From: Acidobacteriota bacterium
GTDB taxonomy: Bacteria; Acidobacteriota; Aminicenantia; UBA2199
Direction: 5' to 3'
Assembly (NCBI GenBank): GCA_022711715.1
Contig: JAKLEC010000001.1
Location: 112,860 to 176,859, forward strand
DNA length: 64,000 nt
The position numbers and the translations under genes were made by a program. Each line of letters opens with the position of its first letter. The stretch's first letter is position 1. This document shows positions 24,966 through 57,854 of the stretch, one piece after another. The notes beneath the pieces are model-generated. The model did no database searches. It worked only from the letters and a program-made list of their open reading frames with translations, and was not told where the DNA came from.

Positions 24966-25092
24966 TCAGGGAAAGCAGAGGGAAGAGAAAGGGAAGAATG
25001 ACGGGAGAGAGAGTGGGAAAAGCCCTGTTGGAACCTCTTTCCCAATTCGTCTTCCCTCTGTCTTTCCCTCTGACTTTCCTCTCTTATCCCTG
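24966..25092. repeat. GGGAAG-type hairpin element (inverted orientation relative to 37081-37210)
   Basis: Purine arm cagggaaagcagagggaagagaaagggaagaatgacgggagagagagtgggaaaag. Pyrimidine arm ctctttcccaattcgtcttccctctgtctttccctctgactttcctctcttatccctg. Confidence 0.85.
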
Positions 25093-26146: not shown

Positions 26147-26254
26147 CACTTGTCACTCAGCTCGAAAATCTATCGCTGCTTCTCGTCATGCGTCACGATA
26201 GATGGATCTGTTACTGTTTCGAGTCACGAATCACGAATCACGAATTACGATAGC
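26147..26254. repeat. Degenerate array mosaic (GTCAC-type and CACGAAT-type units)
   Basis: cacttgtcactcag...ctcgtcatgcgtcacgatag...gagtcacgaatcacgaatcacgaattacgatagc. Confidence 0.7.
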
Positions 26255-35204: not shown

Positions 35205-35208
<4 letters not shown>

Positions 35209-36080
35209 GGGAAATCAAGCTGCAGAGGTTCCTCCAGGAATGCGGCGTGGCCAGCCGCCGCGACATCCGCCGCTGGATCCACGAGGGGCGCTTCCAGGTG
35301 GCGGGCCGGGCCGTGACCGACCCCAACCACCCGGTGCGCCATCCCGGCGACGAGGTGCGTCTCGACGGCCGGCCGCTGCGGCGGGCGCCGCAGGCGCGGA
35401 GCTACTTCATCCTCAACAAGCCGGCCGGGGTCGTCTCCACCCTGTCCGATCCCGAGGGGCGGCCGACAGTCGCCGCCCTCATCCGCCGCATCCGCGAGCG
35501 CGTCTTCCCGGTGGGGCGCCTCGACTTCCACTCCGACGGCCTGATGCTGCTGACCAACGACGGCGAGCTGGCCAACTTCATCCTCTCGGCGCGCAACGGC
35601 GTGCCCAAGACCTACCTGCTCAAGATCAAGGGCGAGCTGTCCGAGGCCGAGCGCGGCAAGCTGGAGCGCGGCTTCGTCCTGGAGGGCGAGCGTCTCAACC
35701 CCTTCGTCATCGAGCCGCAGAGCCGCACCAGCGCCGGCAACTCCTGGCTGCGCGTGACCATCACCGAGGGCAAAAAGCATATCCTGCGCAAGGCCTTCCA
35801 GTTCTCGGGCCACCCGGTGGAAAAGCTGCGCCGCGTGGCCATCGGCGGCATCACCCTGGGCAAGCTGCCGCCGGGCGAGTGGCGCGAGCTGCGCGAGGAA
35901 GAGGTCGAGTCGTTCAAGCGCCAGTACCGCTTCAACGCACCGGCCTCAGGGAAGAAACAGGGAAGAATGAGGGAAGACAGAGGGGCTGGACTAGAAAACC
36001 TCTCGGTCCGTCGAGGTTCCACGTACCACGTACCACGTACCAAGTTGAAGACAAAGGCCTTTCCGCAGAGAACGAAGTGA
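35205..36080 (+). CDS. rluB: Pseudouridine synthase (RsuA/RluB family) with about 50-aa repeat-encoded C-terminal tail
   Basis: S4 domain and the catalytic GRLDFHSDGLMLLTNDG motif. The last about 150 nt read through a GGGAAG-rich repeat element. Confidence 0.85.
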
Positions 36081-36137
36081 GAAAGAAGTTCTGAAAATGC
36101 CTTTCCCACTCTCTCTTCCCTCTGTCTTCCCTTGAGA
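35947..36137. repeat. GGGAAG-type element with inserted CACGTAC x3 array; overlaps the rluB 3' end
   Basis: cagggaagaaacagggaagaatgagggaagacagagggg ... ccacgtaccacgtaccacgtacc (36019-36043) ... gtgagaaagaagttctgaaaatgcctttcccactctctcttccctctgtcttcccttgaga. Confidence 0.85.
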
Positions 36138-36160
36138 TGGGTGGTTCTCAGGTGTAGAAT
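36132..36160 (+). promoter_or_regulatory. Sigma70-type promoter TTGAGA-17-TAGAAT for paralog 1
   Basis: The -35 box is the terminal CTTCCCTTGAGA of the GGGAAG-type repeat. The same architecture occurs at 37205-37233. Confidence 0.5.
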
Positions 36161-36190: not shown

Positions 36191-37093
36191 ATGCGCCATA
36201 AAATCACGATCGGCGTTTTGGCACTGCTTCTGGGCATCCTGACCGCTCCCGCCCGCCTTCATGCCTCGGCCCCGCGCAACATCATCGTCTACTTCGAGTT
36301 CCTCGACAACGCCAACGGCATCGAGGAGGCCGTCTCCTTCCTGTTCGGGCGCATGCTGCGGCCCGGCGACCAGCTGATCGTGCAGTCGCCGGCCAGGACC
36401 TACGGCTTCTCGCCGGCCAGCCTGGGACGCTCCAAGGCCGAGCTGGCCGTCTCCCTGCAGGGCCGGCTGCGCGGCGACATTTCCCGCTCGGGCCAGGGCT
36501 ATAAGCAGGTCCTCCTGGACCTGGACGCGGCGGCGCTGGAGATCGCCGAGCTCGCCTACCCGACCGGCGTGGTGGACGCCAACAAGGACCTGGGCGAGAT
36601 GTTCATCCTCTACCGCCAGGGCCTGGCCAACCTGCGGCAGCTGCGCCAGGTGAGCGCCGCCTCGCTGCGCCGGCTCAGCGGCGCCTTCCAGGGCCAAAAG
36701 GGTGAAAACCACGTCATCGTCCTCTTCGAGCGCGAGTTCCGCCCCATCCCGCGCCGCGAGGCGCTGAACGCGCTGGCCGACATGCCCGCCTTCGCCATGA
36801 AGGCCAACGAGATGTTCTCCGCGACCGAGCTTGACCCGCCCTTTGACGTGCCAGCGCTGGCCGCTTTCTTCCGCGGCGTGCCGCTGACCCTGCACTTCGT
36901 CTACGTCACCTCCAAGAACACGACGATCGCCGGCAACCGCTTTGAGAGTTCGGGCGACATCTACTCCGCCTTCAGCAAGCTCGCCGAAGCCACCGGCGGC
37001 GTATGCGCGGCGACGGCAGAACCAAGGGACGGGCTGAAAGCGGTATTGAAGGCCTGGCAGGGCTCAAAATTGAGCGGATCCAGGGAAGAATGA
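36191..37093 (+). CDS. Secreted alpha/beta protein, tandem paralog 1 (VWA-like fold suspected, no MIDAS)
   Basis: GAGGAG SD 5 nt before ATG 36191. Signal peptide. Shares PRNIIV(Y/F)FE, GDQLI.QSP, QKGENH.IVLFEREFRP.PRREALN, VPLTLHFVYVT and ATGGVC with the two downstream genes. Confidence 0.8.
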   Translation: MRHKITIGVLALLLGILTAPARLHASAPRNIIVYFEFLDNANGIEEAVSFLFGRMLRPGDQLIVQSPARTYGFSPASLGRSKAELAVSLQGRLRGDISRSGQGYKQVLLDLDAAALEIAELAYPTGVVDANKDLGEMFILYRQGLANLRQLRQVSAASLRRLSGAFQGQKGENHVIVLFEREFRPIPRREALNALADMPAFAMKANEMFSATELDPPFDVPALAAFFRGVPLTLHFVYVTSKNTTIAGNRFESSGDIYSAFSKLAEATGGVCAATAEPRDGLKAVLKAWQGSKLSGSREE

Positions 37094-37210
37094 GGGAAGA
37101 CAGAGGGAAAGGCAGAGGGAAAATAAAGTGAGAAAGAGGTTCTGAAAAGGCCTTTCCCACTCTCTCTTCCCTTTCTCCTCCCTCACTCTTCCCTCTGTCT
37201 TCCCTTGAGA
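37081..37210. repeat. GGGAAG-type hairpin element (compact form)
   Basis: Purine arm 37081-37137, loop ttctgaaaagg, pyrimidine arm 37150-37210. Contains the TGA stop of paralog 1 and the -35 box of paralog 2. Confidence 0.9.
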
Positions 37211-37233
37211 TTCTTAATTCCTGGGTGTAGGAT
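37205..37233 (+). promoter_or_regulatory. Sigma70-type promoter TTGAGA-17-TAGGAT for paralog 2
   Basis: Homologous to 36132-36160, with conserved GGTGTAG(A/G)ATGATCCCA. Confidence 0.5.
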
Positions 37234-37262
37234 GATCCCATAAACTTCCCTAGGAGGCCCTG

Positions 37263-38153
37263 ATGCCCCGAAAATCTCCCGCCTTCATTCTCACCCTCAT
37301 CCTGTTCCTGGCCGCCCTGGCCGCCCCGTGCCGCCTGGCGGCTGCCGGGCCGCGCAACATCATCGTCTTCTTCGAGCTCCGCGATGATGTCGCCGGCGTG
37401 GAGAGCGCCGTGGAGACGGTTTTCGACAAGATGCTCGCGCCCGGCGACCAGCTCATCATCCAGTCGCCGGTCCGCGTCTACGGGTTCTCGGCGCAGACCC
37501 TAGCCCGGCCCAAGGCCGAGCTGGTCGCGGCCATCAACGACAAGCTGCGCGCCGACATCACCCGGGCGGCGCAGACCTACAAGCAGGTGATCGGCGAGCT
37601 CGAGACGGCGGCCCGCAACATCGCCAGCCTCGCCTACCCCGACCTCGAGTCGAGCGGCGCCCTGCCCGAGGTCCGCGACATGGGCGAGCTGTTCAACTTC
37701 TACCGCCAGGGGCTGGCCAACCTGGCCGTCCTGCGCAAGGCCAACGACGCCTCCCTGCGCCAGCTGGCCGGCGCCTTCCGCGGCCAGAAGGGCGAAAACC
37801 ATATTATCGTCCTCTTCGAGCGCGAGTTCCGGCCGGTCCCCCGGCGCGAGGCCTTGAACGTGCTGGCCGACATGCCCAAGATCGCCTTCCAAGCCAACGA
37901 GCTGTTCACCATCGGCAACCTGAAGGAACCCTTCGACGCCGACGCCCTGGCCGGGTTCCTCAAGGGAGTGCCGCTGACGCTCCATTTCGTCTACGTCACC
38001 GGCAAGACCACGTCGGCAACCGGCAACCTGCTGGAGAACTCGGGCGACGTCTATTCGGCGTTCAGCGAGGCGGCCCAGGCCACCGGCGGCGTGTGCACGA
38101 CGACCGCCGAGCCCAGCGATGGGCTGAAAACGATTCTTAAATCCTGGAAATAG
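37263..38153 (+). CDS. Secreted alpha/beta protein, tandem paralog 2
   Basis: AGGAGG SD, signal peptide, colinear with paralogs 1 and 3. Confidence 0.85.
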   Translation: MPRKSPAFILTLILFLAALAAPCRLAAAGPRNIIVFFELRDDVAGVESAVETVFDKMLAPGDQLIIQSPVRVYGFSAQTLARPKAELVAAINDKLRADITRAAQTYKQVIGELETAARNIASLAYPDLESSGALPEVRDMGELFNFYRQGLANLAVLRKANDASLRQLAGAFRGQKGENHIIVLFEREFRPVPRREALNVLADMPKIAFQANELFTIGNLKEPFDADALAGFLKGVPLTLHFVYVTGKTTSATGNLLENSGDVYSAFSEAAQATGGVCTTTAEPSDGLKTILKSWK

Positions 38154-38160
38154 AAAAGGG

Positions 38161-38261
38161 CTATCGTAATTCGTAAGGCGTAATTCGTGATTCGTAGCGG
38201 CAAAAGGCCGATCCGTTGCGGTTCTTTTTCCGAATTCCGAATTACGAATCACGAGTGATCG
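38161..38261. repeat. CGTRATT-armed hairpin element, copy 3
   Basis: ctatCGTAATTCGTaaggCGTAATTCGTGATTCGtagcggcaaaaggccgatccgttgcggttctttttcCGAATTCCGAATTACGAATCACGagtgatcg. Confidence 0.9.
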
Positions 38262-38325
38262 TCCTCCCTGTATTTATATTTGACAAAGGAGTATCATTCC
38301 ATCGAGACAATCCACAGGAGATGCC

Positions 38326-39237
38326 ATGCGACGCAAAAAATCGATTTCCCTGCTGGCCCTGTTCCTGGCACTGGCCGCCCTGGCCGTTCCCGCCCCGCTG
38401 CAGGCCGCCGGGCCGCGCAACATCATCGTCTTCTTCGAGTTCCGCGAAGTCACCGGCGGCGTAGATGCCGCTTTGGAGACGGTCTTCAACCGCATGCTCG
38501 GCCCCAGCGACCAGCTGATCATCCAGTCGCCGGCGCGGCTCTACGGCTTCTCGCCGCAGACCCTGGCCCGGCCCAAGACGGAGCTGATCGCCATGATGCA
38601 CGAGAAGCTGCGCGGCGACATCTCCCAGGCGGCGCAGAACTACCAGCAGGTCACCAAGGACCTGGAGATCGCCGTGCGCAACCTGGAGGGTTTCGTGATG
38701 CCTTCGGGGGTCCCCGAAGCCGGCGGCATGGGCGGCGGCAGGGAAACCCGGGACCTCAGCGAGCTCTTCAACGGCTACCGCCAGGGGCTGGACAACCTGG
38801 CCGTCCTGCGCAAGGTCAACGAGGCCGCATTGCGCCAGCTGGCCGGCGCCTTCCGCGGCCAGAAGGGAGAGAACCACATTATCGTCCTGTTCGAGCGCGA
38901 ATTCCGGCCGGTGCCGCGGCGTGAGGCGCTGAACATCCTGGGCGACATGCCCAAGTTCGCCTTCCAGGCCAACGAGCTGTTCACCATCGGCAACCTGAAG
39001 GAACCCTTCGACGGCGCCGCCCTGGCCGAGTTTTTCAAGGAGGTGCCGCTGAAGTTGCATTTCGTCTACGTCACCGGCAAGACCACGTCGGCAACCGGCA
39101 ATCTGCTGGAGAACTCGGGCGACGTCTACTCGGCCTTCAGCAAGGCGGCCCGGGCCACCGGCGGCGTGTGTGAGACCACGGCCGAGCCGGCGGACGGCTT
39201 GAAGGCGGTCATGAAGGCCTGGAAGGACGAAAAATAG
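38326..39237 (+). CDS. Secreted alpha/beta protein, tandem paralog 3
   Basis: AGGAG SD, signal peptide, colinear with paralogs 1 and 2. Confidence 0.85.
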   Translation: MRRKKSISLLALFLALAALAVPAPLQAAGPRNIIVFFEFREVTGGVDAALETVFNRMLGPSDQLIIQSPARLYGFSPQTLARPKTELIAMMHEKLRGDISQAAQNYQQVTKDLEIAVRNLEGFVMPSGVPEAGGMGGGRETRDLSELFNGYRQGLDNLAVLRKVNEAALRQLAGAFRGQKGENHIIVLFEREFRPVPRREALNILGDMPKFAFQANELFTIGNLKEPFDGAALAEFFKEVPLKLHFVYVTGKTTSATGNLLENSGDVYSAFSKAARATGGVCETTAEPADGLKAVMKAWKDEK

Positions 39238-39246
39238 CGGCAGAAG

Positions 39247-39340
39247 CGATCGTAATTCGTTAGACGTAATTCGTAATTCGTAACCGCAACAGATCGATCC
39301 GTTGCAGTTCCTCTTCCGAATTACGAATCAGGAGTGATCG
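39247..39340. repeat. CGTRATT-armed hairpin element, copy 4
   Basis: Same architecture and orientation as 38161-38261. Core ccgcaacagatcgatccgttgcag. Confidence 0.9.
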
Positions 39341-39367
39341 TTCCCCCTGTAGTTCTTTTGGCAGGGG

Positions 39368-39471
39368 CTATCGCAATTCGTCAGGCGTAATTCATAATTC
39401 ATAGCCGCAAAAGACTGGTCTATTGCCGCTTTTCTTCCGAATTTCGAACCACGAATTACGAATTACGGATC
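39368..39471. repeat. CGTRATT-armed hairpin element, copy 5 (more diverged)
   Basis: ctatcgcaattcgtcaggcgtaattcataattcatagccgcaaaagactggtctattgccgcttttcttccgaatttcgaaccacgaattacgaattacggatc. Confidence 0.85.
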
Positions 39472-39515
39472 TCGGTTTTCATGAAACGGCCGTGTTTCGG
39501 CCGGCGTCTATAATA

Positions 39516-39548: not shown

Positions 39549-41642
39549 ATGCATTCTCCAGCAACCCGACCGATGTTCCACCGCTCCCGACGGCGGGCGG
39601 CCCTGCTGCTGGGTCTTTTCCTGCTCCTGGGCGGGGCTTCCCGCGGCGATGCGCCCAAGCGCCCGCCCCTGGCCGAGAAATACCGCCAATGGCTCGAGCT
39701 GGTCGAATACATCATCACCCCCGACGAGCGCCGCATCTTCATCGACCTGGACAACGACCGCGACCGCGAGGCCTTCATCAACATCTTCTGGAACCAGCGC
39801 GACCCCAGCCGCGGCACGCCGGCCAACGAGTTCAAGGACGAGCACGTCCGCCGCTTCGAGTACGTCAACCGCTACTTCGGCTTCTCCTCGCCGCTGCCCG
39901 GCTGGAAGACCGACCGCGGCCGCATCTACATCCTGCTGGGGCCGCCGGTCAGCCGCGACGAGGTCTTCAGCAGCTACCTCTACCCCATCGAGATCTGGGA
40001 TTACTACGGCGAGCCGGGCAAGGGCATGCCGACGATGTTCAACGTCGTGTTCTACCGCAAGGGCAACGCCGGTGACTTCAAGTTGTACATCCCGGCCGTC
40101 GACGGCCCGGACCAGCTGCTGATCACCGGGGTGGGCGAGTTCCGCTCCACCGACTACCAGGCCATCGTCAAGAAGCTCAACGAGATCAAGCCCGAGGTCG
40201 CCGACATCGCCCTGTCGCTGATCCCCGGCGAAAAGACCACCAACTTCTCGCCCTCCATGCGCGACCTGACGCTGATGGCCAAGATCAGCGACCTGCCCAA
40301 GCAGAACATCAACACCACCTACGCCAACCAGTTCCAGCGCTTCAAGGCCTATGTCAACGTCGAGAACTCGGCCGACTACCTGGGCAGCCGCCGCGAGGTG
40401 CTCCTGCTGCGCGATCCCGTGTCGCGGCTGACTTTCCTGCACTTCGCCATCTGGCCCGAGCGCATATCGGTCGATTTCTCGCCGGACACCAAGCAATACG
40501 CCTGCTCCTACAAGATGGCGGTGGACCTGCGCCGGGGCGAGGCGATCGTCTTCCAGCAGACCAAGACCCTGCCCTTCGCCTACGACCAGGCCGGCATGGA
40601 GAAGACGCTGGCCGACGGCTTGGTGCTGGCCGACATGATCCCGGTGATCGCCGGCGATTTCGAGCTGACCGTGCTGGTGCAGAACTCGGTCAACAACGAA
40701 TTCGCCACCTTCAGCGAGCGGGTGCGCGTGCCCGGCGATGGCCAGGCGGCGGTCTTCGGCCCGCTCGTCTCCTACCGCGTGCAGGCCGGCGCCCGCGCCG
40801 TCTTCTCCGCCTTCGCCACCCGCAACCTGCAGGCCAGCCCCGATCCCCAGCGCACCTTCGGCGAGAAGGAGCCGCTGCAGGCGCTGCTGGGCGCCGACTT
40901 CGGCGCCGCTCCCGGCGGCGCCCCGCCGGAAGTCGAGCTGACCAGCGTTCCGGCCGCCGGCGCCGCTCCCGTTTCCCGGCGGCTGCAGCCGCGTTCGAGC
41001 GGCGGCGACCGGGTGCAGACCTACCATGTCGAGCTGGGGGCGCTGCCCCCCGGCTACTACCGCCTGCGCGCCGTCCTGCGCGACGCCCGAGGCGGCGAGA
41101 TCGCCGGCGACGAGACGAACTTCACCGTCTCGCGGCTGCCGGCGGTGTCCCACCCGGCCGTGGCGGCGCCGAGCGTTCCCGCCGCCCGCGAGTACGCCTT
41201 CCGCGCCATGCTGGCCGCCCAGTACGAGGCCAGCGGCCGCCCCGACGACGCCGAGCGCGAGTACGACGAGGCGCTGCGCCAGGGCGGCGACAACCTGCCG
41301 CTGCGAGTCGCCTTCGCCCGCTTCCTGCTCGCCCAGGCCAAGCCCGAGCGGGCGCTGGAGGTGTCCGCCCCACTGCCGGAGCAGGGCGCGCATGCCTTCG
41401 ACCGCTTCGCCCTGCGCGGCAAGGCCCTGTACCGCCTCGGCCGCTGGCAGGAGGCCGTCGACGAGCTGCTGCGCGCCAACGCCCTCTACGACAGCGACAT
41501 CTCGGTGCTCAACGGCCTCGGCCTCTCGCTGCTGCGCCTGGGCAACCCCCAGGAAGCGCGCAAGGCGCTGGCGGCGTCGCTGAAGATCAAGGCGGAGCAG
41601 CCCGACATCGCCGCCGTGCTGCGGCAGACGGAGGCCCCATGA
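39549..41642 (+). CDS. GWxTD domain protein with C-terminal TPR region
   Basis: FINIFWNQRDP...PLPGWKTDRGRIYILLGPP matches the GWxTD family signature. TPR-like C-terminus. Start ATG 39549 follows a TGgTATAAT promoter. Confidence 0.85.
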   Translation: MHSPATRPMFHRSRRRAALLLGLFLLLGGASRGDAPKRPPLAEKYRQWLELVEYIITPDERRIFIDLDNDRDREAFINIFWNQRDPSRGTPANEFKDEHVRRFEYVNRYFGFSSPLPGWKTDRGRIYILLGPPVSRDEVFSSYLYPIEIWDYYGEPGKGMPTMFNVVFYRKGNAGDFKLYIPAVDGPDQLLITGVGEFRSTDYQAIVKKLNEIKPEVADIALSLIPGEKTTNFSPSMRDLTLMAKISDLPKQNINTTYANQFQRFKAYVNVENSADYLGSRREVLLLRDPVSRLTFLHFAIWPERISVDFSPDTKQYACSYKMAVDLRRGEAIVFQQTKTLPFAYDQAGMEKTLADGLVLADMIPVIAGDFELTVLVQNSVNNEFATFSERVRVPGDGQAAVFGPLVSYRVQAGARAVFSAFATRNLQASPDPQRTFGEKEPLQALLGADFGAAPGGAPPEVELTSVPAAGAAPVSRRLQPRSSGGDRVQTYHVELGALPPGYYRLRAVLRDARGGEIAGDETNFTVSRLPAVSHPAVAAPSVPAAREYAFRAMLAAQYEASGRPDDAEREYDEALRQGGDNLPLRVAFARFLLAQAKPERALEVSAPLPEQGAHAFDRFALRGKALYRLGRWQEAVDELLRANALYDSDISVLNGLGLSLLRLGNPQEARKALAASLKIKAEQPDIAAVLRQTEAP

Positions 41643-42577
41643 AACGACTGGCTCCCCTGGCCTGCGCCGCCCTACTCCTCGGCCTGGCGCTGCTGCGGCC
41701 CGTCGCCGCGGCGCCCAAGCTCGACGCCGACAGCGAGGAATTTTACCGCATGGCGCGCTATTTCATGACCCGCGACGAGGAGAAGCGCTTCCGCAACCTG
41801 GCCACCCCCGAACTGCGCCGGGAGTTCATCGACGCCTTCTGGGAGATCCGCGACCCCGATCCCCTCACGACGGAGAACGAGTTCCGCGACGAGTTGGAGG
41901 AGCGTTTCGAATTCGTCGGCCGCTACCTGCGCGAGGGCAACCGCCCGGGCTGGGACACGGCCCGGGGCATGATCTACCTGGTGCTGGGGCCGCCCGACAC
42001 CATGACCGCCGGCTCGACGCCCTACCCCAGCGCCTCCCCCTACAACCGCGACTCGGCGTCCGACACCACCTCCGGCGTCATTGTCTGGCCCTATCCCCTG
42101 CTCAGCGTCAACGTCGTCTTTGTCGACCGCCAGGGCTTCGGCATCTACGAGCTGGACATGCTTCGCACCTCGCCGCGGCTGCTGGCGCTGCTGAAGGCGG
42201 GCAAGACCCGCTTCATCCGCGACGGCGCCAAGTCCGCCGATGAGCCGTTCCTGCCGTTCAAGGCCGACGTCGACGCCGCCCGCGGCGTCGTGCGCGTCGT
42301 CCTCGCCGCCAGGGAGCTGCGCTACGAGATCGATCCCGACGGCTCCTATTACGCCCGCGTGCAGATGGCGGCCAACGTCTACCACAGCGACGGCCGCATC
42401 GTGAGCCGCAAGGAGGAGCAGCGGGTCGCGCTCGGCGTTCCGGGGCAGGAGAAGGAGAAGCTGGAGTTGGAGTGGGCGATCCCGCTGGCGCCGGGACGCA
42501 ACCAGGTCGACCTGCTGGTCTCGGACCAGGTCAGCGGCCGCTCGAACCGCCTGTTCCTGGCAGTGAAAAAAAAGTGA
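41639..42577 (+). CDS. GWxTD domain protein (GWDTA variant)
   Basis: FIDAFWEIRDPDP...RPGWDTARGMIYLVLGPPD. 4-nt overlap with the upstream gene. Confidence 0.85.
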   Translation: MKRLAPLACAALLLGLALLRPVAAAPKLDADSEEFYRMARYFMTRDEEKRFRNLATPELRREFIDAFWEIRDPDPLTTENEFRDELEERFEFVGRYLREGNRPGWDTARGMIYLVLGPPDTMTAGSTPYPSASPYNRDSASDTTSGVIVWPYPLLSVNVVFVDRQGFGIYELDMLRTSPRLLALLKAGKTRFIRDGAKSADEPFLPFKADVDAARGVVRVVLAARELRYEIDPDGSYYARVQMAANVYHSDGRIVSRKEEQRVALGVPGQEKEKLELEWAIPLAPGRNQVDLLVSDQVSGRSNRLFLAVKKK

Positions 42578-42611: not shown

Positions 42612-43568
42612 ATGCGCAACACCATCCGTCACTTCCTGGCCGGCGCCCTGCTGCTGGCCGTCGCCGTCGCGCTCCCCGCCCAGGAGGGCCGCGGCAACGG
42701 CCGCCTCACCGGCACCGTGGTCGATGAGAACGGCGCCCCGCTGGAGAACGCGACCATCACCCTGAAGTACATGGAGTTCAACAATACCCGCGAGACGAGG
42801 TCCAACAACAAGGGACAGTGGGGCTTCCTCGGCCTGGGCAAGGGCACGGTGCAGGTCACCGGCGCCCTGGAGGGCTACGCCTCCACGACCACCCAGCAGC
42901 CGGTCAGCGGCGCCAAGCCCAATCCGGAGATCCACCTGGTGCTCAAGAAGGGCGGCACCGGCATCGCCGGCGACCCCAACCGCGACGCCATCCTGCGCGC
43001 CCACGACCTGTTCGACAAGCGCCAGTACGCCGAGGCGCTGGCCCTGTACCAGGAGTTCGCCCAGAAGAACCCGGCCAACTACCAGATCGGCGTCTACATC
43101 GGCAACTGCATGACCGAAATGGGCGACTACGAGGAGGCCCTGGCCGAATACCAGAAGGTGCTGGCCGAGGTCACCAAGGAGAACCCCGAGCTGAAGGGCA
43201 ATACCACCGCCTCGCTGGTCTTCGCCGGCATCGGCGACGTCTACCTGCGCCAGGAGAAGTGGAAGCCGGCGGTGGAGAACTTCCAGCGCTCGATCGACAT
43301 CCAGCCCAGCGACCCGGCCCTGCCCTTCAACGTGGCCGAGATCATGTTCGCCCGCAACAAGCCCGAGGAGGCCGAGAAATACTACCTGATGGCCGTCCAG
43401 ATCAAGCCCGAGTGGCCCAAACCCTACCTGAAGCTGGCCTACGTGGCCATGAACCGCGGCCAGATGGACAAGGCGGTCGAGCACCTGAAGAAGTACATCG
43501 AGATCGGCAAGGACGACCCCGGCTTCGCCGAGGGCCAGGCGCTGCTCGAGCTGCTGCAGAAGAAATAG
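42612..43568 (+). CDS. CarboxypepD_reg-like domain + TPR protein, secreted
   Basis: AAGGAGGA SD. Signal peptide. GRLTGTVVDENGAPLENATITL beta-sandwich motif followed by TPR repeats. Confidence 0.8.
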   Translation: MRNTIRHFLAGALLLAVAVALPAQEGRGNGRLTGTVVDENGAPLENATITLKYMEFNNTRETRSNNKGQWGFLGLGKGTVQVTGALEGYASTTTQQPVSGAKPNPEIHLVLKKGGTGIAGDPNRDAILRAHDLFDKRQYAEALALYQEFAQKNPANYQIGVYIGNCMTEMGDYEEALAEYQKVLAEVTKENPELKGNTTASLVFAGIGDVYLRQEKWKPAVENFQRSIDIQPSDPALPFNVAEIMFARNKPEEAEKYYLMAVQIKPEWPKPYLKLAYVAMNRGQMDKAVEHLKKYIEIGKDDPGFAEGQALLELLQKK

Positions 43569-43572
43569 CCCC

Positions 43573-46062
43573 GTGCCCACGTTCGCGAGGCGGTGGCGCG
43601 GCGCCGCCGCCGCGGCGCTGCTGCTGGCCCTGGCGTTCGCTGTCGGCGCCTGCCGCCGCCAGCAGCCGGGGCCGGGCGGCTCCGCCGGCGGCCGCTTCAA
43701 CCTGCTGCTCATCACTTTGGACACCACCCGGGCCGACCGCCTGGGCTGCTACGGCGACGCCCGCGCCGCGACGCCCGTGCTGGACCGCCTGGCCCGCGAG
43801 GGCGTGCGCTTCGAGCGCGCCTATACCACCGCGCCGCTCACCCTGCCGGCCCACGTCAGCCTGATGACCGGCCGCGGGCCCCAGGCCCACCAGGTGCGCA
43901 ACAACGGCACCTATGCGCTGCGCCCCGAGGAGGCCACCCTGGCCGAGGAGCTGAAGCGCGCCGGCTTTTCCACCGCGGCCATGATCGCCGCCTTCGTGCT
44001 GGAAGCCAAGTTCGGACTGGCCCAGGGGTTCGACCGCTACGACGACGCGCTGGACAAGCCGCAGGGCTACACCAACTTCCGCTCCGAGATCACCGCCGAC
44101 CGGGTGCACGACAAGTTCCGCCGCTGGCTGGACGGCGCCCCCGGGGCGCCCTTCTTCTGCTGGGTGCACCTCTACGATCCCCACGCCCCCTACGCGCCGC
44201 CCGCCCCCTACCGCGAGCGCTTCGCCGGCGACCCCTACCGCGGCGAGATCGCCTTCATGGACGAGACCATCGGCCGCATGCTGGCCGACCTGGAGGAGCG
44301 CGGCCTGCTGGAGAACACCCTGGTGGTGGCCGTGGGCGACCACGGCGAGGGCTTCGACGAGCACGGCGAGAGCGGGCACGGCGTCTTCTGCTACGAGGAG
44401 TCGCTGCGCGTGCCGCTCATCTTCCGCCTGCCGCGCCTTTTCGCCGGCGGCCGGGCGGTGAAGCGGCCGGTGGGACTGGTCGACGTGCTGCCCACCGTGC
44501 TCGATCTCTGCCGGCTGCCGCGCCCCGCCGGCATGCAGGGGCGCAGCCTGGGGACGCTGCTCCGCTCCGCCGGGGAGGACGGCGGCGAGGCCCCCCTCTA
44601 CTTCGAGAGCCTGTACGGCATGGAGGAGATGGGCTGGGCGCCCCTGTCGGGACTGCTGAGCGGCTCCTGGAAGTACATCTCCCTGCCCAAGCCGGAGCTG
44701 TACGACCTCGCCGCCGATCCGCTGGAAAAGAGCAACCTGTACCTGCAGAAAAACGCGCAGGCCAAGCGCCTGGCGCGCGAGCTGGACGACCTGCTGAGCC
44801 GCACGGTGCCCGCTGGCGCCTCGGCGCTGCGGCCGCAGCAGACGCGCGCCAACCAGGCGCGCCTGCGCGCCCTCGGCTACCTGGCCGCGGCCGGGAACCA
44901 GGCCTGGCAGGGCTCGGGCGACGACCCCAAGGACGGCATCGGGCCATTGAACTTACTGATGAAGGCCCGCGAGGAGGTACGCCAGGGGCGCCTCGACTCC
45001 GCCGCCCGACAGTTCGCCGCCCTGCGCGCCAGCGGCATCGACCGCACGCTCCCCCAGTTCTACGACATGTACTACGAGCTGGCGCTGGCGCGCAAGGACC
45101 CGGCCCGGGTACGTGCCGCCCTGCGCGAGGCCAGCGAGCGCTTTCCCAGCCTGACGCGCTTCGACATGGTGCTGGCGGGCTACCTGCGCGAGCGCGGCGA
45201 CAAGCACGGCGCCGAGGCGGCGGCGCTGCGCGCCCTGGCCAAGGACCCGAAGACCGTCGAAGCCCACCTGCTGCTGGGCGAGCTCTACCGCAACCAGAAG
45301 CAGCTGGAGAAGGCCATCACCCATTTTCGCCAGGCCTGGGACCTGGAGCCCGACGGCGCCAAGCTGGGCCTCGCCCTAGCCGACCTCAGCCTGGAGGCGG
45401 GGCGCGCGCCGGAGGCGCTGGAGGCGTTGCGCCGCCTCCTGCGCCAGGCCGGCGACCGTCCCGACGCGCTGGAAGCCGACGTCCGCGCCCAGGCGGCCAA
45501 GCTGCTGCTCAAGCTCGGGCAGCCGGAGCTCGCGGAAGGCCTGCTGCGCGGCCTGGTCGGCGAGCAGGCCGGCAACCCGGCGCACTGGACGCAGCTGGGC
45601 CTGGCCCAGCTCGACCGCGGCCAGGGGGACGAGGCGCTGGCCTCCTTCACCCGCGCCCTCGAGCTCGATCCCCGGCAGGCGCTGGCCCTGAGCGGCATGG
45701 GCACCCTGCACCTGACCCTGTTCCGCCAGCGCAAGGACCGGCCGAGCCTGCAGCGCGCCGAGGAGTACTTCTCGCGGGCGGTGGCCGTGGACGCCAAGCT
45801 GGTCACGGCGCTGAACGGCCTGGGCGTGACCTATCTCTACCTCGGGGACGCGGCACAGGCCATCGAGCGGCTGCGCACCGCCGTCGCCGCCGACCCGGGC
45901 TTCGTCAACGCCTATTTCAACCTGGCCATCGCCCAGCTCAGCGCCGGCCGCAAGGGCGCGGCGAAGAACACGCTGGGCATGCTGCGCCAGCGCCACGGCG
46001 GGCGCCTCAGCGCCGGGGAGCGATCGCAGTACGAGGCGCTCTGGCGCGAAGCCACGTCCTAG
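43573..46062 (+). CDS. Sulfatase-like (alkaline phosphatase superfamily, Thr-type) hydrolase fused to TPR domain
   Basis: LLITLDTTRAD...APLTLPAHVSLMTG...VGDHGEGF, followed by about 350 aa of TPR. GTG start with a possible lipobox (AVGAC). Confidence 0.85.
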   Translation: MPTFARRWRGAAAAALLLALAFAVGACRRQQPGPGGSAGGRFNLLLITLDTTRADRLGCYGDARAATPVLDRLAREGVRFERAYTTAPLTLPAHVSLMTGRGPQAHQVRNNGTYALRPEEATLAEELKRAGFSTAAMIAAFVLEAKFGLAQGFDRYDDALDKPQGYTNFRSEITADRVHDKFRRWLDGAPGAPFFCWVHLYDPHAPYAPPAPYRERFAGDPYRGEIAFMDETIGRMLADLEERGLLENTLVVAVGDHGEGFDEHGESGHGVFCYEESLRVPLIFRLPRLFAGGRAVKRPVGLVDVLPTVLDLCRLPRPAGMQGRSLGTLLRSAGEDGGEAPLYFESLYGMEEMGWAPLSGLLSGSWKYISLPKPELYDLAADPLEKSNLYLQKNAQAKRLARELDDLLSRTVPAGASALRPQQTRANQARLRALGYLAAAGNQAWQGSGDDPKDGIGPLNLLMKAREEVRQGRLDSAARQFAALRASGIDRTLPQFYDMYYELALARKDPARVRAALREASERFPSLTRFDMVLAGYLRERGDKHGAEAAALRALAKDPKTVEAHLLLGELYRNQKQLEKAITHFRQAWDLEPDGAKLGLALADLSLEAGRAPEALEALRRLLRQAGDRPDALEADVRAQAAKLLLKLGQPELAEGLLRGLVGEQAGNPAHWTQLGLAQLDRGQGDEALASFTRALELDPRQALALSGMGTLHLTLFRQRKDRPSLQRAEEYFSRAVAVDAKLVTALNGLGVTYLYLGDAAQAIERLRTAVAADPGFVNAYFNLAIAQLSAGRKGAAKNTLGMLRQRHGGRLSAGERSQYEALWREATS

Positions 46063-46066
46063 CAAA

Positions 46067-46294
46067 GATATCGTGACGCGTAACGCGTGACAAGTAACCG
46101 CGTCAGGACGAGCGCTCGTGATTCGTCATTCGTAATTCGTGATTCGCAACAGCAATGGAACGGTTCATGCTATTCGAACACTCTCTCGTCATTGATTCGC
46201 TTCAGGGCTTTCCTAACACGAACACAAACACGAACACATAGTTAGATCGTTCGTTCTTTTTGGCTTTCCTACCACTATCACTACCACTACCACT
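46067..46294. repeat. Composite mosaic: GCGTRAC array - linker - CGTRATT array - CAACAGCAATGG core - CACGAA/CACAAA array - TAYCAC array
   Basis: Colinear with 3016-3153. The final taccac array continues into the conserved 3' flank of the sulfatase-like gene. Confidence 0.85.
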
Positions 46295-46310: not shown

Positions 46311-48632
46311 CTACTTCTTCTCGAGCTCGGCAATGAGCCTTTCCCCCTCGCGCGTGTAGAAGTCCCGGCGCTCGGGGTTGCCCAGCGCGTTGAACAAATT
46401 GGTCAGCACGAAATAGCCGAACAGCGTGTCGCGGTCCCGCGGCGGCACGGCGATCCCCTTTAGGCAGAGGTCGACGGCTTCGTTGAGGTCGCCTCCCCGG
46501 CGCAGCAGGATCTCGGCCAGGTGGAAGCGCGGCAGCTTCAGCCCGGGGTTGGCGGCGATGGCCTGGCGGTAATAGCCCTCGGCCTCGCCGGCCCGTCCGG
46601 CCTGCTTGAGCAGGTTGCCCAGGTTGGCTGCCGCCTGGAAGTTCTGGCCGTTGACTTCCAGCTCGCCGCGATAGAACTCGATGGCCGCCTCAGGCTTCTG
46701 CAGCGCCTCCTGCACCTGCGCCAGCAGGAAGCGGGTGTTGCGCGCCCGCGGGTTCTCCCTGAGGCCGCGGCGCAGCAGCTCCTCGGCGGCGGCGTAGTCC
46801 CCCTTCAGGATCAGCGCCTCGCCGGCCTGGTTGTAGGCCTGGGGAGCGGCCGGGTCGATGGCGATCGCCCGCCGCAGCAGCGGCAGGGCCTCGTCGGGAC
46901 GGCGCTGCAGCATGCGGATGTGGCCCAGCTCCTCCAGCAGCGCCGGGTCGTCGGGGAAGACCTTCAGGAAAGCCAGGTTCTCCTCGGCGGCGGCGTCGAG
47001 CTCGCCCGACGTGGCCAGGGTCTTGACGACGTTGATCATCAGGAAATTGTTGTCGGGCTTGAGGGCCAGGGCGCGGCGGAAGGCCTCGAGCGCCTCCTGG
47101 CGCCGCTTGCGCTTCAGGTTGACGTTGCCCAGCAGGCTCCAGGCGTCGGCCAGCTCGGGCTCCTCGCGCGCCAGCTTCTCCAGCAGGACGGCGGCGTCCT
47201 CGAAGCGCTTCTGCTCCATCAGCGCGGATGCCCGCGAGATGGAGTTGCCGACGCCGATCTTGTCCTTGGGATCGGCCAGCGGCCTGGACTCGTCGACGCG
47301 CACCTCGCCCGACAGGTAGCCCAGGGCGGCCAGCCGCCGCTGGTCCTCGGGGCTCAGGCGGCTGCCGGCGGCGCTGCGCAGCGCGTTGCGCGAGCGGCGG
47401 CTGACGAAGTCCAGCAGGCGGCCGCGCAGCTCGCGGCGGCGCGGATCGCCAACCAGGTCGCGGCTCTCGCCGGGATCGCGCCCCAGGTCGTACAGCTCGT
47501 CGCGCGGCGCCAGGATGTACTTGAGCGCGCCGCGGTGGAAGGACTGCAGGGGCGACCAGCCGAAGTGGAAGCGGGGGTAGAAGGTCTCGCTGTAGGCCTC
47601 GCCCTCTCCGCCGGCATCGCGCCCGTCCAGCTGGGGCCAGAGCGACCGGCCCTGCCACTCCCGGGGCGCGGGAACGGCCAGCATCTCGAGGATGGTCGGT
47701 GCCACGTCGACCAGCTCCACGGTCCTGGGCACCGTGCGGGCGGCGAACGGCCGCGGGGCGCGGACGATCAGCGGCACGCGGACCGTCGTCTCGTACAGGA
47801 ACATGCCGTGGCCGTCCTCGCCGTGGTCGCCGAGCCCCTCGCCGTGGTCGGCGGCCACCACGATGAGCGTGCGCTCATACAGCCCCTTCTCCTTGAGAAA
47901 GGCGATGAACTTGCCCAGCTCGGCGTCGGTGTACTCCACTTCTCCGCGGTAGGCGGCGCGCGGTGTGCCGCGCGGGTAGGGCGGCGGCGGGTCGTAGGGT
48001 GAGTGCGGGTCGTACAGGTGGATCCAGGCGAAGAAGCGGCGGCCGCCGATCCTCTCCAGCCACTGGCGGGCCTCGCCCAGCACCTCGTCGGCGCGCTTCT
48101 CGTTCTCCAGCAGGATGCGGCCGTAGCGCGCCGGGTCGAAGCGGTCGGAGTAGAGGTCCCAGCCCTGGGCCAGTCCCCACTTGTTGTGCAGCACGAACGC
48201 GCCGATGAAGGCGGCGGTGGCCATCCCGCGCCCCTGCAGCACCTCGCTGAGCAGGGTCAGCGCGGCCGGCGCCTGGAAGCCGCCGTTGTCGCGGACCTGG
48301 TTGAAGGGCGGGTAGGTGCTGGAGAGGAGCGAGGTGTGCGAGGGCAGGGTGAGCGGCACCTGGGCGACGCAGCGGTCGAAGCGCGCCCCTTCCCCGGCCA
48401 GGGCGTCCAGCGCCGGCGTGCGCGCCAGCCCGGCGCCGTAAGCACCGACATGGTCGGCGCGCAGGGTGTCGATGGTGACCAGGATGACGCTGAGGTCGCC
48501 TGAGGGGAGCTGGCGGCCGGGAGCGGACAGGAAGCGGAAGGCCAGCCAGGCGGCCGCTGCCAGCAGCGCCACGGCCCCGGCAACGGCCCACCAGCGCGGA
48601 CGGAAAGGACGAGCGGCGGCGGGGACGGTCAT
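46311..48632 (-). CDS. Sulfatase-like (Thr-type) hydrolase fused to TPR domain, paralog
   Basis: VTIDTLRADH...VPLTLPSHTSLLS...AADHGEGLGDHGE plus TPR. 773 aa, colinear with 48892-51213. Confidence 0.88.
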   Translation of the reverse strand: MTVPAAARPFRPRWWAVAGAVALLAAAAWLAFRFLSAPGRQLPSGDLSVILVTIDTLRADHVGAYGAGLARTPALDALAGEGARFDRCVAQVPLTLPSHTSLLSSTYPPFNQVRDNGGFQAPAALTLLSEVLQGRGMATAAFIGAFVLHNKWGLAQGWDLYSDRFDPARYGRILLENEKRADEVLGEARQWLERIGGRRFFAWIHLYDPHSPYDPPPPYPRGTPRAAYRGEVEYTDAELGKFIAFLKEKGLYERTLIVVAADHGEGLGDHGEDGHGMFLYETTVRVPLIVRAPRPFAARTVPRTVELVDVAPTILEMLAVPAPREWQGRSLWPQLDGRDAGGEGEAYSETFYPRFHFGWSPLQSFHRGALKYILAPRDELYDLGRDPGESRDLVGDPRRRELRGRLLDFVSRRSRNALRSAAGSRLSPEDQRRLAALGYLSGEVRVDESRPLADPKDKIGVGNSISRASALMEQKRFEDAAVLLEKLAREEPELADAWSLLGNVNLKRKRRQEALEAFRRALALKPDNNFLMINVVKTLATSGELDAAAEENLAFLKVFPDDPALLEELGHIRMLQRRPDEALPLLRRAIAIDPAAPQAYNQAGEALILKGDYAAAEELLRRGLRENPRARNTRFLLAQVQEALQKPEAAIEFYRGELEVNGQNFQAAANLGNLLKQAGRAGEAEGYYRQAIAANPGLKLPRFHLAEILLRRGGDLNEAVDLCLKGIAVPPRDRDTLFGYFVLTNLFNALGNPERRDFYTREGERLIAELEKK

Positions 48633-48891: not shown

Positions 48892-51213
48892 CTACTTTTT
48901 CTCGAGCTCGGCAATGAGCTTCTCCCCCTCGCGGGTATAGAAGTCGCGGCGCTCGTTGTCGCCCAGGGCGTTGTAGAGGTTGGTCAGCACGAAGTAGCCG
49001 AACAGCGTCTCGCGGTCCCGGGGCGGCAGCGCGATCCCCTCCAGGCAGAGGCCGACGGCGCGCTCCAGGCCGCGGCCCTGGCGCAGCAGGATCTCCGCCA
49101 GGTGGAAGCGTGCCATCTTCAGCCTGACGTCGGCGGCGACGGCCGCCTCGTAGTACCGGGCCGCTTCGTCGAGCCGGTCCTGCTGCTTCAGCAGGTTGGC
49201 CAGGCTGACCGCCGCCTCGTGGCGCCGGGGATCGGTCTCCAGCTCGCGGCGGTAATGCCCGGCCGCCTCCTCTTTCCGCCCCTCGCCCTCGGCGGCCAGC
49301 CCCAGCAGGTAGTGGCTTCCCGCGGCATTGGGCACGACGGCCAGCACCCCGTCCAGCAGCTCCCGGGCGGCGGCGAAATCGCCGGCGGCGACGCGCTTGG
49401 CGGCCGCCTCGTTGAGCCGGGGGTAGATCCCGGGATCGGCGGCGAAGGCCCGGCGCAGCGCCTGCAGCCCGTCCGCGCCGGCGCCCTGCGCCAAACGGAT
49501 GCGCCCCAACACGGCCAGGAGCTCCGGGTCGTTGGGGGCGTCGCGCAGGAAGCGTTCGGCCTCGGCGGCCGCCTCAGCGAGGCGGTTCAGCTTCTCCAGC
49601 GTCTTCAGCAAGTCGAGGCGGTTGTTGGCGTCCTCGGGCTTGAGGGCCAGGGCGCGGCGGAACGCGGCCAGCGCCTCTTCGAAGCGGCCGCCGGCGAACA
49701 GGGCGTTGCCCTCCAGGTTCACGGCGTCGGCGAAGCCGGGGTTGCGCCCGACGATGCCGCGGGCCGTTTCCAGCGCCTCCTGCCAGCGCCCCGAGCCGAG
49801 AACGGCCACCGCCTTGCCGAAGGCCACATAGTCGCCCAGCCTGTCCTTGGGATCGGGCAGCGTTTCATCGTCGCCGGCGGCGGCGACGGAGCCGCCCAGG
49901 TAGCCGAGAGCGGCCAGGCGGCGGCGGTCCTCGGCGCTCATGGCCTGGATGGCGGAAGGCGCCAAAGCCCCGCGGCCGGCCTTCTGCATGAACGCCAGTC
50001 CGCGCCCGCGCAGGTCGTCGCGGCGGCGCGGCCGCTCGCCGGCGAGGTTGCGCCGCTCGCCCGGGTCGGCGGCGAGGTCGTAGAGCTCGTCGCGCGGCGC
50101 GAAGATGTATTTCTCGCCGTTGCGGTAGAAGGCCTTGAGCGGCGACCAGCCGTAGTGCAGCCGCGGGTACCAGGTCTCGCTGTAGGCGTCGCCGAAGCGG
50201 GAGTCGCTTTCGCCGGCCAGCAGCCGCGTCAGCGGCTTCCCCTGCCAGCCGGGGGGGGCGGGAATGCCCAGCAGCTCCAGGATGGTCGGCGCCACGTCGA
50301 CCAGCTGCACCGTCGTGGCCACCGTGCGGGCGGCGAACGGCCGCGGGCCGCGGACGATCAGCGGCACGTGCAGCGTCGTCTCGTACAGGAAATAGCCGTG
50401 CTTCTGCTCGCCGTGGTCGTCGAGCCCCTCGCCGTGGTCGGCGGTCGCCACCACCAGGGTCCGCTCCCAGAGCCCCCTCTCCTTCAGGAAGGCGAAGAAA
50501 CGGCCCAGCTCGGCGTCGGTGTACTCCACCTCGCCGCGGTAGGGGTCGTTGCCGCGGTCGAAGGGCGGCGGCGGGACGTAGGGGAAATGGGGGTCGTAGA
50601 GGTGGATCCAGGCGAAGAAGCGCCGGTTGCTGATGGCGGCGAGCCAGCCGCGGGCTTCGGCCAGCACTTCGCCGGCCGGCTTCTTGGCCAGCAGATCCAG
50701 GCTGCCGCCGGCTCCGGGATCGAAGCGGTCGGCGTACAGGTCGAACCCCTGGTTGAGCCCCCACTTGCCGTGCAGGACGTAGCCGCCGATGAAGGCGGCG
50801 GTGGCGAAACCGCGCCCGCGCAGCACCTCGCTGACCAGCTCCAGCTGCGGCGGCGCCTGGAAGGCGCCGTTGTCGCGCAGGCGGTGGAACAGCGGCTGCG
50901 TGGCCGACAGCAGCGAGGCGTGCGATGGCAGGGTGAGCGGCGCCTGGGCGACGCAGTGCGCGAAACGCGTCCCCTCGCCGGCCAGGGCGTCGAGCGCCGG
51001 CGTCGCGGCCCGCCCCTGGCCGTAGGCGCCCACGTGGTCGGCGCGCAGGGTGTCGATGGTGACCAGCACCACGTTCCAGGAGGCGGGGTCGGCAAGGCCG
51101 GCCCGCGGGCGCAGCAGCCAGACGCCCAGGGCCAGCAGCGCGGCCAGGGCCATGACGGCCGGCCACAGGAGCCGACGGCGGCGGCCGGAGGGGGAAGCGG
51201 ATGGCGTTCTCAC
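48892..51213 (-). CDS. Sulfatase-like (Thr-type) hydrolase fused to TPR domain, paralog
   Basis: VTIDTLRADH...APLTLPSHASLLS...TADHGEGLDDHGE plus TPR. GTG start. Same C-terminal ...REGE(R/K)LIAELEKK as its neighbour. Confidence 0.88.
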   Translation of the reverse strand: MRTPSASPSGRRRRLLWPAVMALAALLALGVWLLRPRAGLADPASWNVVLVTIDTLRADHVGAYGQGRAATPALDALAGEGTRFAHCVAQAPLTLPSHASLLSATQPLFHRLRDNGAFQAPPQLELVSEVLRGRGFATAAFIGGYVLHGKWGLNQGFDLYADRFDPGAGGSLDLLAKKPAGEVLAEARGWLAAISNRRFFAWIHLYDPHFPYVPPPPFDRGNDPYRGEVEYTDAELGRFFAFLKERGLWERTLVVATADHGEGLDDHGEQKHGYFLYETTLHVPLIVRGPRPFAARTVATTVQLVDVAPTILELLGIPAPPGWQGKPLTRLLAGESDSRFGDAYSETWYPRLHYGWSPLKAFYRNGEKYIFAPRDELYDLAADPGERRNLAGERPRRRDDLRGRGLAFMQKAGRGALAPSAIQAMSAEDRRRLAALGYLGGSVAAAGDDETLPDPKDRLGDYVAFGKAVAVLGSGRWQEALETARGIVGRNPGFADAVNLEGNALFAGGRFEEALAAFRRALALKPEDANNRLDLLKTLEKLNRLAEAAAEAERFLRDAPNDPELLAVLGRIRLAQGAGADGLQALRRAFAADPGIYPRLNEAAAKRVAAGDFAAARELLDGVLAVVPNAAGSHYLLGLAAEGEGRKEEAAGHYRRELETDPRRHEAAVSLANLLKQQDRLDEAARYYEAAVAADVRLKMARFHLAEILLRQGRGLERAVGLCLEGIALPPRDRETLFGYFVLTNLYNALGDNERRDFYTREGEKLIAELEKK

Positions 51214-54540: not shown

Positions 54541-54889
54541 CTTTCTGAGTGTCAGTGTCCGTGTCAGCAAGAAAGAACTTTCAGCAACCTATGTGTTCGT
54601 GTTAGTGTTTGTGTTAGTGTTAGGAAAGCCAGGATCATGAACACCGTCGAGATATAAGTGGTAGTGATAGTGATAGTGGTAGGAGCGGCATGAACCGATC
54701 TAATGCCGTTGCGGATCACGAATTACGAATCACAATGGGTTATTTGCTGTTCCTCGTCACGCGTCACGCGTCACGATTGTTTTGGACAGATCGGGTGTCA
54801 GTGATAGTGTTAGGAACAGCAATCAACGAAATCCTATCAAGAACCGAGCAAAGGGCTCTTCACTTTTACCTTTTTCCTTTTACCTTTCG
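54541..54889. repeat. Super-mosaic containing seven array types in about 350 bp
   Basis: GTGTCMG (54541-54570), GTGTTN (54593-54624), GTGRTA (54658-54683), small hairpin cggcat...atgccg, CACGAAT (54713-54732), GTCACGC (54755-54777), GTGATA/GTGTTA + GGAACAGCAAT (54796-54827), CTTTTNC (54858-54889). Confidence 0.88.
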
Positions 54890-57815: not shown

Positions 57816-57854
57816 GTGAACCTCCATGCGCTCATTTTCATCCATGGAGGGAAT

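Follow-up and report, generated by a model that had tools for sequence, protein, structure and literature searches.

The 64,000-nt stretch of contig JAKLEC010000001.1 from an Acidobacteriota bacterium (hereafter the window, in whose numbering all coordinates are given) carries three tandem paralogous genes, referred to here as paralogs 1, 2 and 3 (Table 1). GenBank holds the exact sequences of all three products under the label 'hypothetical protein', from a Candidatus Aminicenantes metagenome-assembled genome (MAG). Our analysis suggests, with a probability of roughly 0.55, that these proteins are Sec-exported adaptors or scaffolds built on a von Willebrand factor A (VWA) core without the metal-ion-dependent adhesion site (MIDAS), that they form a minimal branch of the acidobacterial family TIGR03436, and that they probably partner envelope proteins encoded by neighbouring genes, including two GWxTD proteins.

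The initial annotation, made from the DNA letters and their open reading frames (ORFs), had described three tandem genes, each with its own Shine–Dalgarno (SD) site and signal peptide, and the coordinates, SD sites and N-termini were all confirmed. GGAGA is located 6 nt upstream of 36191, AGGAGG precedes 37263 and AGGAG precedes 38326. An alternative ATG at 36167 would extend paralog 1 to 308 aa, while the GenBank start gives 300 aa. At the amino acid level, paralogs 2 and 3 are the closest pair (73% identity), paralog 1 being 60% identical to paralog 2 and 59% to paralog 3, all far above chance. Direct reading of the sequences revealed signal-peptide features in all three: the N-terminus is basic, a hydrophobic stretch follows, and an AxA-type end (LHA/SAP, LAA/AGP and LQA/AGP in paralogs 1, 2 and 3, respectively) lies just ahead of the motif PRNIIV[FY]FE. 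A lipoprotein reading was rejected, as Cys23 of paralog 2 (AAPC) is not part of a lipobox and the cysteine is not kept in paralogs 1 and 3. The claim of long identical blocks shared by the three proteins was partly overstated. ATGGVC alone is the same in every one of them, PRNIIVFFE and FRGQKGENHIIVLFEREFRPVPRREALN are common to paralogs 2 and 3 only, and neither GDQLIIQSP nor the full VPLTLHFVYVTG...SAFS block is exact outside paralog 2. Each of the latter two blocks has a single differing residue in paralog 3, and paralog 1 departs from them at one and several residues, respectively.

Scans of the three proteins against Pfam and NCBIfam returned no family at E≤1, and no PADLOC family, VWA-containing anti-phage systems included, was matched by the paralogs or the GWxTD proteins at E≤0.1. 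Searching 5.8 billion proteins, we retrieved direct homologues in 103 clusters at 90% identity, none with a Pfam domain; the named records among them are 'hypothetical' and come from Acidobacteriota or Aminicenantes MAGs. Against 1.84 billion representatives of 50%-identity clusters, the family profile had 394 matches at E≤1e-3, of which 263 reached E≤1e-10. Many of these matches (E 1e-23 to 1e-61) were ∼400 aa in length, with ∼80–100 additional residues at the N-terminus and ∼45 at the C-terminus; we refer to them as long forms. Three of them, P0250, P0228 and P0238, were found by hmmsearch with the profile of the family alignment A2 at E 1e-23 to 1e-25, and these three of the ten long forms tested also exceeded the curated cut-off of TIGR03436 (acidobact_VWFA; 81.25 bits), with 119.9, 90.7 and 82.5 bits, respectively. 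A Pfam scan of the long forms tested gave nothing at E≤0.1, and several long forms bear the Joint Genome Institute label 'VWFA-related protein'.

Globally, TIGR03436 was matched at E≤1e-3 by 81 of 130 relatives and by all 38 members of the long-form alignment A5. Comparing the short forms (A2) with the long forms (A5) in hhalign yielded a probability of 99.9% (E 3.5e-37) over 267 columns, the short forms aligning to columns 100–379 of the 423 in the long-form profile. Because of this match, and because long forms in turn match TIGR03436, we consider the paralogs homologous to the TIGR03436 VWA core. The paralogs themselves gave no TIGR03436 match at E≤1, and none of the three reached the membership score. 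Judged by these profiles, they form a branch of the acidobacterial 'VWFA-related' superfamily that is both divergent and minimal and that no Pfam or NCBIfam model recognises. The initial annotation could not assign a family, which agrees with the null result of the direct Pfam and NCBIfam scans but no longer holds at the superfamily level. Its suspicion of a tie to the 'VWFA-related acidobacterial domain' proved real at that level, as seen in the profile and hhalign results and in the TIGR03436 matches of the long forms.

Relative to the long forms, the paralogs are missing a beta segment at the N-terminus and the YYLxY...RxGY tail at the C-terminus; the mature protein begins at beta1 (PRNIIVFFE) right behind the signal peptide and stops after the last helix. 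From their sequences, the paralogs thus appear to be Sec-exported proteins with little beyond one VWA-type alpha/beta domain. With TIGR03436, whose NCBI name is 'VWA domain-containing protein', they have in common the homologous core, export, a TGG before the last strand, restriction to Acidobacteriota and paralogous expansion with tandem copies. They differ from it in the missing model match, in the absence of ∼100 N-terminal and ∼44 C-terminal model-equivalent columns, in a helical insertion and in the MIDAS motif DxSxS, which none of the paralogs or the 130 relatives contains and which we take to be present in typical TIGR03436 members. Tandem duplication is typical of the long-form branch too: at one locus (L024, 7001-9564), two MIDAS-less TIGR03436-like genes of the long form (∼405 aa) lie in tandem.

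The initial annotation had proposed a Rossmann/VWA-like fold without a DxSxS motif, and structure prediction bore this out. For paralog 2, an alignment of 62 sequences yielded an AlphaFold2 model with a predicted local distance difference test score (pLDDT) of 85.2 and a predicted TM-score of 0.81; confidence was low in the N-terminal helix. Its elements follow the order b1-a1-b2-b3-two long helices (84-124 and 140-156)-a-b4-a-a-a-b5-a-b6-a, such that a predicted helical hairpin of ∼70 residues is inserted between beta3 and beta4. Foldseek returned 12 PDB matches at E≤1e-3, with probabilities of up to 1.00. As far as the entries could be identified, the best 50 matches were mostly VWA or VWA-like domains, among them the Sec23/24 trunk, TFIIH p34/p44, CMG2/ANTXR1, integrin I (alpha1/alpha2) and beta-I domains, factor B, Ku80, NorD and Cav alpha2-delta. 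The top matches were MIDAS-less scaffolds, led by Sec23 (E 1.5e-4) and TFIIH p34/p44 (E 1.6e-4). According to the model, the paralogs have the three-dimensional fold of a VWA domain. The same alpha/beta fold and strand order are found in canonical VWA and integrin I domains (PF00092, PF13519), from which the paralogs differ in having no Pfam VWA match, no MIDAS (DxSxS...T...D) and the ∼70-residue hairpin between beta3 and beta4.

We also considered whether the paralogs could be Rossmann-like enzymes, such as methyltransferases or aminotransferase-like proteins, instead of VWA proteins. PDB sequence searches with the family profile (A2) and a broad profile (A3) did list methyltransferases and an aminotransferase (E 0.8–1.6), along with coiled coils, all of them insignificant. 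Cofactor motifs are absent from the paralogs, neither Pfam nor NCBIfam gives an enzyme match at E≤1, the Foldseek matches are mainly VWA domains and the homology to TIGR03436 proteins is strong, which effectively refutes an enzyme.

The loss of the MIDAS extends across the whole group. Where a canonical VWA domain has DxSxS, the beta1 loop of the paralogs reads FFE[FL]xD, and D-x-[ST]-x-[ST] was found after beta1 in none of the 130 relatives, nor is it present in the long forms. Other positions are conserved instead. D62 and G276, the latter within T274-G-G276, are present in 130 of 130 relatives, as is D98 of the conserved [RK]96-x-D98 in 129. [ST]68-P69 and G177 are also conserved across this clade, as are [QE]186-[RK]-E188-x-x-P191 (E188 in 112/130) and E258-x-S260-x-D262 (E258 in 99/130 with Asp in a further 29, S260 in 111/130 and D262 in 101/130). 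The model suggests that the loops carrying the QRE and ExSxD motifs extend from the C-terminal ends of the central strands, on the face of the canonical MIDAS.

This placement raises the alternative that the fold and ancestry are as described, but that a rebuilt site, formed by [QE]-[RK]-E after beta4 and E-x-S-x-D after the beta5 region, replaces the MIDAS and binds a cation or a small acidic or basic ligand. Binding of a partner or substrate (e.g. a matrix polysaccharide or a protein carboxylate) would then be metal-dependent. Such a site would fit the acidic or polar character of the motifs that the clade conserves most strongly, and their position, in the model, in the loops of the canonical MIDAS. 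We nevertheless regard it as unlikely, as no known metal-site signature was matched, the interleaved arginines R187 and R190 suggest salt bridges over a metal cage, and the best fold matches are MIDAS-less scaffolds.

Those scaffolds provide the closest analogy for the function of the paralogs. The Sec23/Sec24 trunk, TFIIH p34/p44 and the Ku70/80 VWA domains, all among the top Foldseek matches (E 1.5e-4 to 1e-3), also lack the metal site, and this shared absence suggests a protein–protein scaffold role for the paralogs. They differ in being eukaryotic and cytosolic or nuclear, with 7–12% identity and no detectable sequence similarity to the paralogs; the likeness is one of fold and logic only, with an ancestry no closer than the VWA superfamily. 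By analogy, the paralogs may act as metal-independent protein-binding adaptors or scaffolds, presumably in the periplasm or at the cell envelope or surface. Their partners would probably be the exported GWxTD, TPR, sulfatase-TPR and outer-membrane barrel proteins encoded nearby, and specificity may be set by the variable helical hairpin. Paralogs 2 and 3 are most variable at the tip of this hairpin (residues ∼106–140), where nucleotide identity is 54–56%, as against 86–93% DNA identity in the C-terminal half.

The genes downstream of the paralogs were in agreement with the initial annotation, which had placed two GWxTD proteins there: both exceeded the TIGR04514 cut-off of 28 bits (Table 1). 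The first, a GWxTD/TPR protein, is encoded by an ORF that is open from TTG 39423; the second is 100% identical to a GenBank Aminicenantes protein. A GWxTD pair follows the family genes directly at 11 of 16 distinct loci, and the order histidine kinase, sigma54 response regulator, RluB-like protein, family copies, GWxTD/TPR, GWxTD, CarboxypepD_reg/TPR and sulfatase/TPR is kept in L001 and L002. A second arrangement was found at L023, where a long form lies beside a convergent GWxTD/TPR and GWxTD pair and a CarboxypepD_reg protein. The pairing, for which the initial annotation had pointed to a reported association, is real in so far as it recurs at these loci, and falls short of a rule, since family and module also occur apart. 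We found no paper reporting a GWxTD–VWFA association; its source is presumably a note by the TIGRFAMs curators. Overall, the GWxTD link is recurrent, in at least two arrangements, and obligatory in neither direction.

Several observations weigh against the paralogs being adaptors for the neighbouring GWxTD proteins. Five of the 16 loci, which are more divergent (43–59% identity), have no adjoining GWxTD gene: in L003–L005 the family gene is directly ahead of a CarboxypepD_reg/TPR gene, in L006 and L017 it is surrounded by sugar-metabolism genes, and in L018 it follows gap-pgk-tpi-secG. L016 has no GWxTD gene within the available sequence. Conversely, L019 and L020 carry the module GWxTD/TPR, GWxTD, CarboxypepD_reg/TPR and sulfatase/TPR with no family member, and three of the four long-form loci examined have no adjoining GWxTD gene. 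The 11 positive loci are also not 11 independent observations, because they largely represent one syntenic clade. As for the fold and its use, the Foldseek TM-scores were modest (0.29–0.40 for the query, up to 0.54 for the target), partly because the query carries the helical insertion and the signal peptide, and the conserved acidic motifs (QxE and ExSxD) could still bind a cation, contradicting metal independence. Finally, the proposed function rests on analogy, because the literature offers no experiment or paper on the family, TIGR03436 or GWxTD; a search for these and for Aminicenantes VWA proteins returned nothing relevant.

Loci at which the family or the GWxTD module stands alone would be expected if the paralogs were VWA-like envelope proteins unrelated in function to GWxTD, their adjacency being the inherited gene order of one Aminicenantes lineage. 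Each paralog would then be its own transcription unit, and the array would have arisen by repeat-mediated duplication. This is possible, although we consider it doubtful. Consistent with it, paralogs 1 and 2 have predicted promoters of their own, hairpin or terminator-like elements lie between all the genes, copies in several genomes are bordered by repeats of a type described below (type A), and loci differ in copy number (1–3). It does not readily account for the independently arranged, convergent GWxTD-TPR and GWxTD pair beside the distant long form in L023, nor for L003, where the family gene again adjoins the CarboxypepD_reg/TPR gene of the same module, and the association presumably noted by the TIGRFAMs curators would also speak against it.

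Scanning one genome per GTDB species, we found 12 loci, all in Aminicenantes or Acidobacteriota MAGs by title or gene order. Including metagenome contigs, there were the 16 distinct loci mentioned above, with 1, 2 or 3 tandem copies each. Four of the loci from the GTDB scan (L008, L012, L016 and L018) are titled 'uncultured Clostridia bacterium'; they carry the Aminicenantes-type family in the same gene order, and L008 and L012 also have the GWxTD pair downstream. These titles are probably taxonomic mislabels. In a neighbour-joining tree, the first-position copies, including paralog 1, formed one orthologous clade across genomes, and the remaining copies formed a second, 'GWxTD-proximal' lineage that was re-duplicated independently in several genomes, for example as copies 2 and 3 of the window and copies 2 and 3 of L001. 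By this tree, both lineages predate the divergence of these genomes and have been retained since, and the second and third copies of the window stem from later, lineage-specific duplication. This long retention of both lineages argues for non-redundant roles, which may consist in different partners or in a hetero-oligomer.

The ratio of nonsynonymous to synonymous substitution rates (dN/dS), estimated with a simple method in a GC-rich genome, was 0.46–0.55 between paralogs and 0.24–0.52 for orthologue pairs. By the same simple method, the neighbouring regulator and GWxTD genes gave 0.30–0.52. The values between paralogs at first looked high, but orthologues and neighbouring genes are similar. 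As the overall range of 0.24–0.55 resembles that of neighbouring genes, we conclude that the paralogs are functional, with no sign of positive selection.

We also compared the locus with the Bat (Bacteroides aerotolerance) operons, which encode the membrane-anchored VWA proteins BatA and BatB, the TPR protein BatC, and MoxR and DUF58 proteins. Both have tandem VWA-type genes beside envelope TPR genes, and the CarboxypepD_reg/TPR neighbour has a BatC-like TPR match that is sub-threshold (32 bits against a cut-off of 175). The paralogs differ in having neither a MIDAS nor a membrane anchor beyond the signal peptide, and no MoxR ATPase or DUF58 gene was found among the genes called around the locus or in L001 and L002.

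For the GWxTD domain, an AlphaFold2 model of the 312-aa protein (pLDDT 82.9) showed an all-helical N-terminal GWxTD domain followed by a C-terminal sandwich resembling immunoglobulin and fibronectin type III (FN3) domains. Its PDB matches were FN3 domains, factor XIII barrels and RbmA, with partial cover and sandwich folds only, and the GWxTD domain itself seems to be without a solved structural relative. Because the matches were partial and the helical half went unrecognised, the structure gave no functional clue.

The surroundings of the array extend into a downstream island (Table 1) with three sulfatase-domain and TPR fusions and two CarboxypepD_reg proteins with outer-membrane beta-barrels resembling TonB-dependent receptors. 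These neighbours place the locus amid genes for exported envelope proteins. Genes of these types are also found with the GWxTD module in L019 and L020 and with the family gene in L003. It is tempting to combine the MIDAS-less VWA proteins of both short and long form with the GWxTD/TPR, GWxTD/Ig-like, CarboxypepD_reg/TPR, sulfatase-TPR and CarboxypepD_reg barrel proteins into one undescribed, Acidobacteriota-specific machine of the envelope or surface. Such a machine might assemble matrix or adhesion structures, or capture and process substrates at the outer membrane, with the VWA-core paralogs as interchangeable adaptors that take their partner specificity from the hairpin tip. We put this forward tentatively, as a rather improbable reading.

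What the analysis offers is useful annotation of an unmodelled subfamily of a known family, and no new kind of system or mechanism. Three 'hypothetical proteins' become members of a definable family of ∼100 clusters at 90% identity, within a wider clade of long and short forms that comprises several hundred 50%-identity clusters, and with a model derived from alignments A2 and A3, such proteins could be annotated across Aminicenantes and Acidobacteriota genomes. The locus survey provides an empirical check of the VWA–GWxTD gene-neighbourhood link. In addition, the compact soluble VWA core is a convenient entry for structural and interaction work on TIGR03436 and GWxTD, two large acidobacterial families.

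Table 1. Coordinates of the paralogs, their neighbours and the elements between them. HMM, hidden Markov model.
Feature	Position	Strand	Details
Paralog 1	36191-37093	+	300 aa; HOW44053.1; family HMM 461.6 bits
Paralog 2	37263-38153	+	296 aa; HOW44054.1; protein used for structure model
Paralog 3	38326-39237	+	303 aa; HOW44055.1; family HMM 493.8 bits; adjoins GWxTD genes
Predicted promoter of paralog 1, sigma-70-like	36132-36160	+	TTGAGA-17-TAGAAT; 10/12 consensus positions
Predicted promoter of paralog 2, sigma-70-like	37205-37233	+	TTGAGA-17-TAGGAT
Type-A purine/pyrimidine-rich long hairpin	37081-37215	.	Between paralogs 1 and 2; second copy 35947-36140
Type-B palindromic element (CGTAATT heptad arms)	38158-38270	.	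Terminator-like hairpin 38206-38223, then T-run
Two more type-B palindromic elements	39244-39355, 39365-39475	.	Paralog 3 to GWxTD-TPR gene
GWxTD + TPR protein	39549-41642	+	697 aa from ATG 39549; TIGR04514 101.7 bits, PF20094, TPR families
GWxTD protein	41639-42577	+	312 aa; TIGR04514 80.8 bits
CarboxypepD_reg + TPR protein	42612-43568	+	318 aa; directly downstream of family member in L003-L005
Sulfatase-domain + TPR fusion	43573-46062	+	829 aa; last gene of co-directional block
Downstream island	43573-46062 (+), 46311-48632 (-), 48892-51213 (-), 51521-54358 (-), 54966-57845 (-)		

Promoters of their own had been predicted for paralogs 1 and 2 and none for paralog 3, and our analysis led to the same picture: sigma-70-like sites precede the first two, and a promoter-like site ahead of paralog 3 was sought and not found. 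Control by sigma-54 was suggested by the conserved sigma54-type regulator upstream. No sigma-54 promoter (TGGCAC-N5-TTGCW, at most two mismatches) was present upstream of the paralogs, the pattern had 13 matches in the scan against 28.6 expected, and we rejected this candidate, there being no evidence that the two-component system governs the paralogs.

Two kinds of repeat occupy the spacers. Type-A elements precede paralogs 1 and 2, with the -35 boxes of both predicted promoters abutting their 3′ edge, and partial copies lie at 3156-3204 and 25006-25081. The copy tested folds as RNA with -69.7 kcal/mol (z -5.4). Related sequence is found before and between paralogs in other Aminicenantes MAGs (spacers of L001, L008, L009, L010, L014 and L015). 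The type-A element may serve as a cassette of terminator and promoter, or unequal recombination at it may underlie the variation between 1 and 3 copies. No Rfam family reached its gathering score anywhere in the window; at the locus there were only sub-threshold look-alikes of miRNA precursors over the type-A hairpin, as fits a long hairpin. No tRNAs were found.

The RluB-like pseudouridine synthase ORF (35205-36080) measures 291 aa here and 263 aa in L001 and L002; because its extra C-terminal tail reads through the left arm of a type-A element, it is doubtful whether this is the true stop or the tail is relevant. On the other side of the array, the GWxTD/TPR gene of L002 (11143-13244, on the same contig as L013) is split into ORFs of 224 aa and 476 aa; either it has frameshifted or become a pseudogene, or the assembly is in error. 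Beyond the island, an 816-aa ORF at 58157-60607 (+), in which no Pfam family was found at E≤1e-5, is overlapped on the opposite strand by an ORF of 719 aa.

Type-B elements consist of CGTAATT heptad repeats as inverted arms around a GC-rich hairpin. Besides those listed in Table 1, there are sites at ∼1344-1425, 2033-2057, 3068-3099, 26218-26249, 46117-46148 and 54710-54734, and a degenerate 18-mer of this type had 31 matches against 0.01 expected. Type B was found only in the genome of the window, not in related loci, and looks like a dispersed repeat of the repetitive extragenic palindrome (REP) kind or a miniature inverted-repeat transposable element (MITE).

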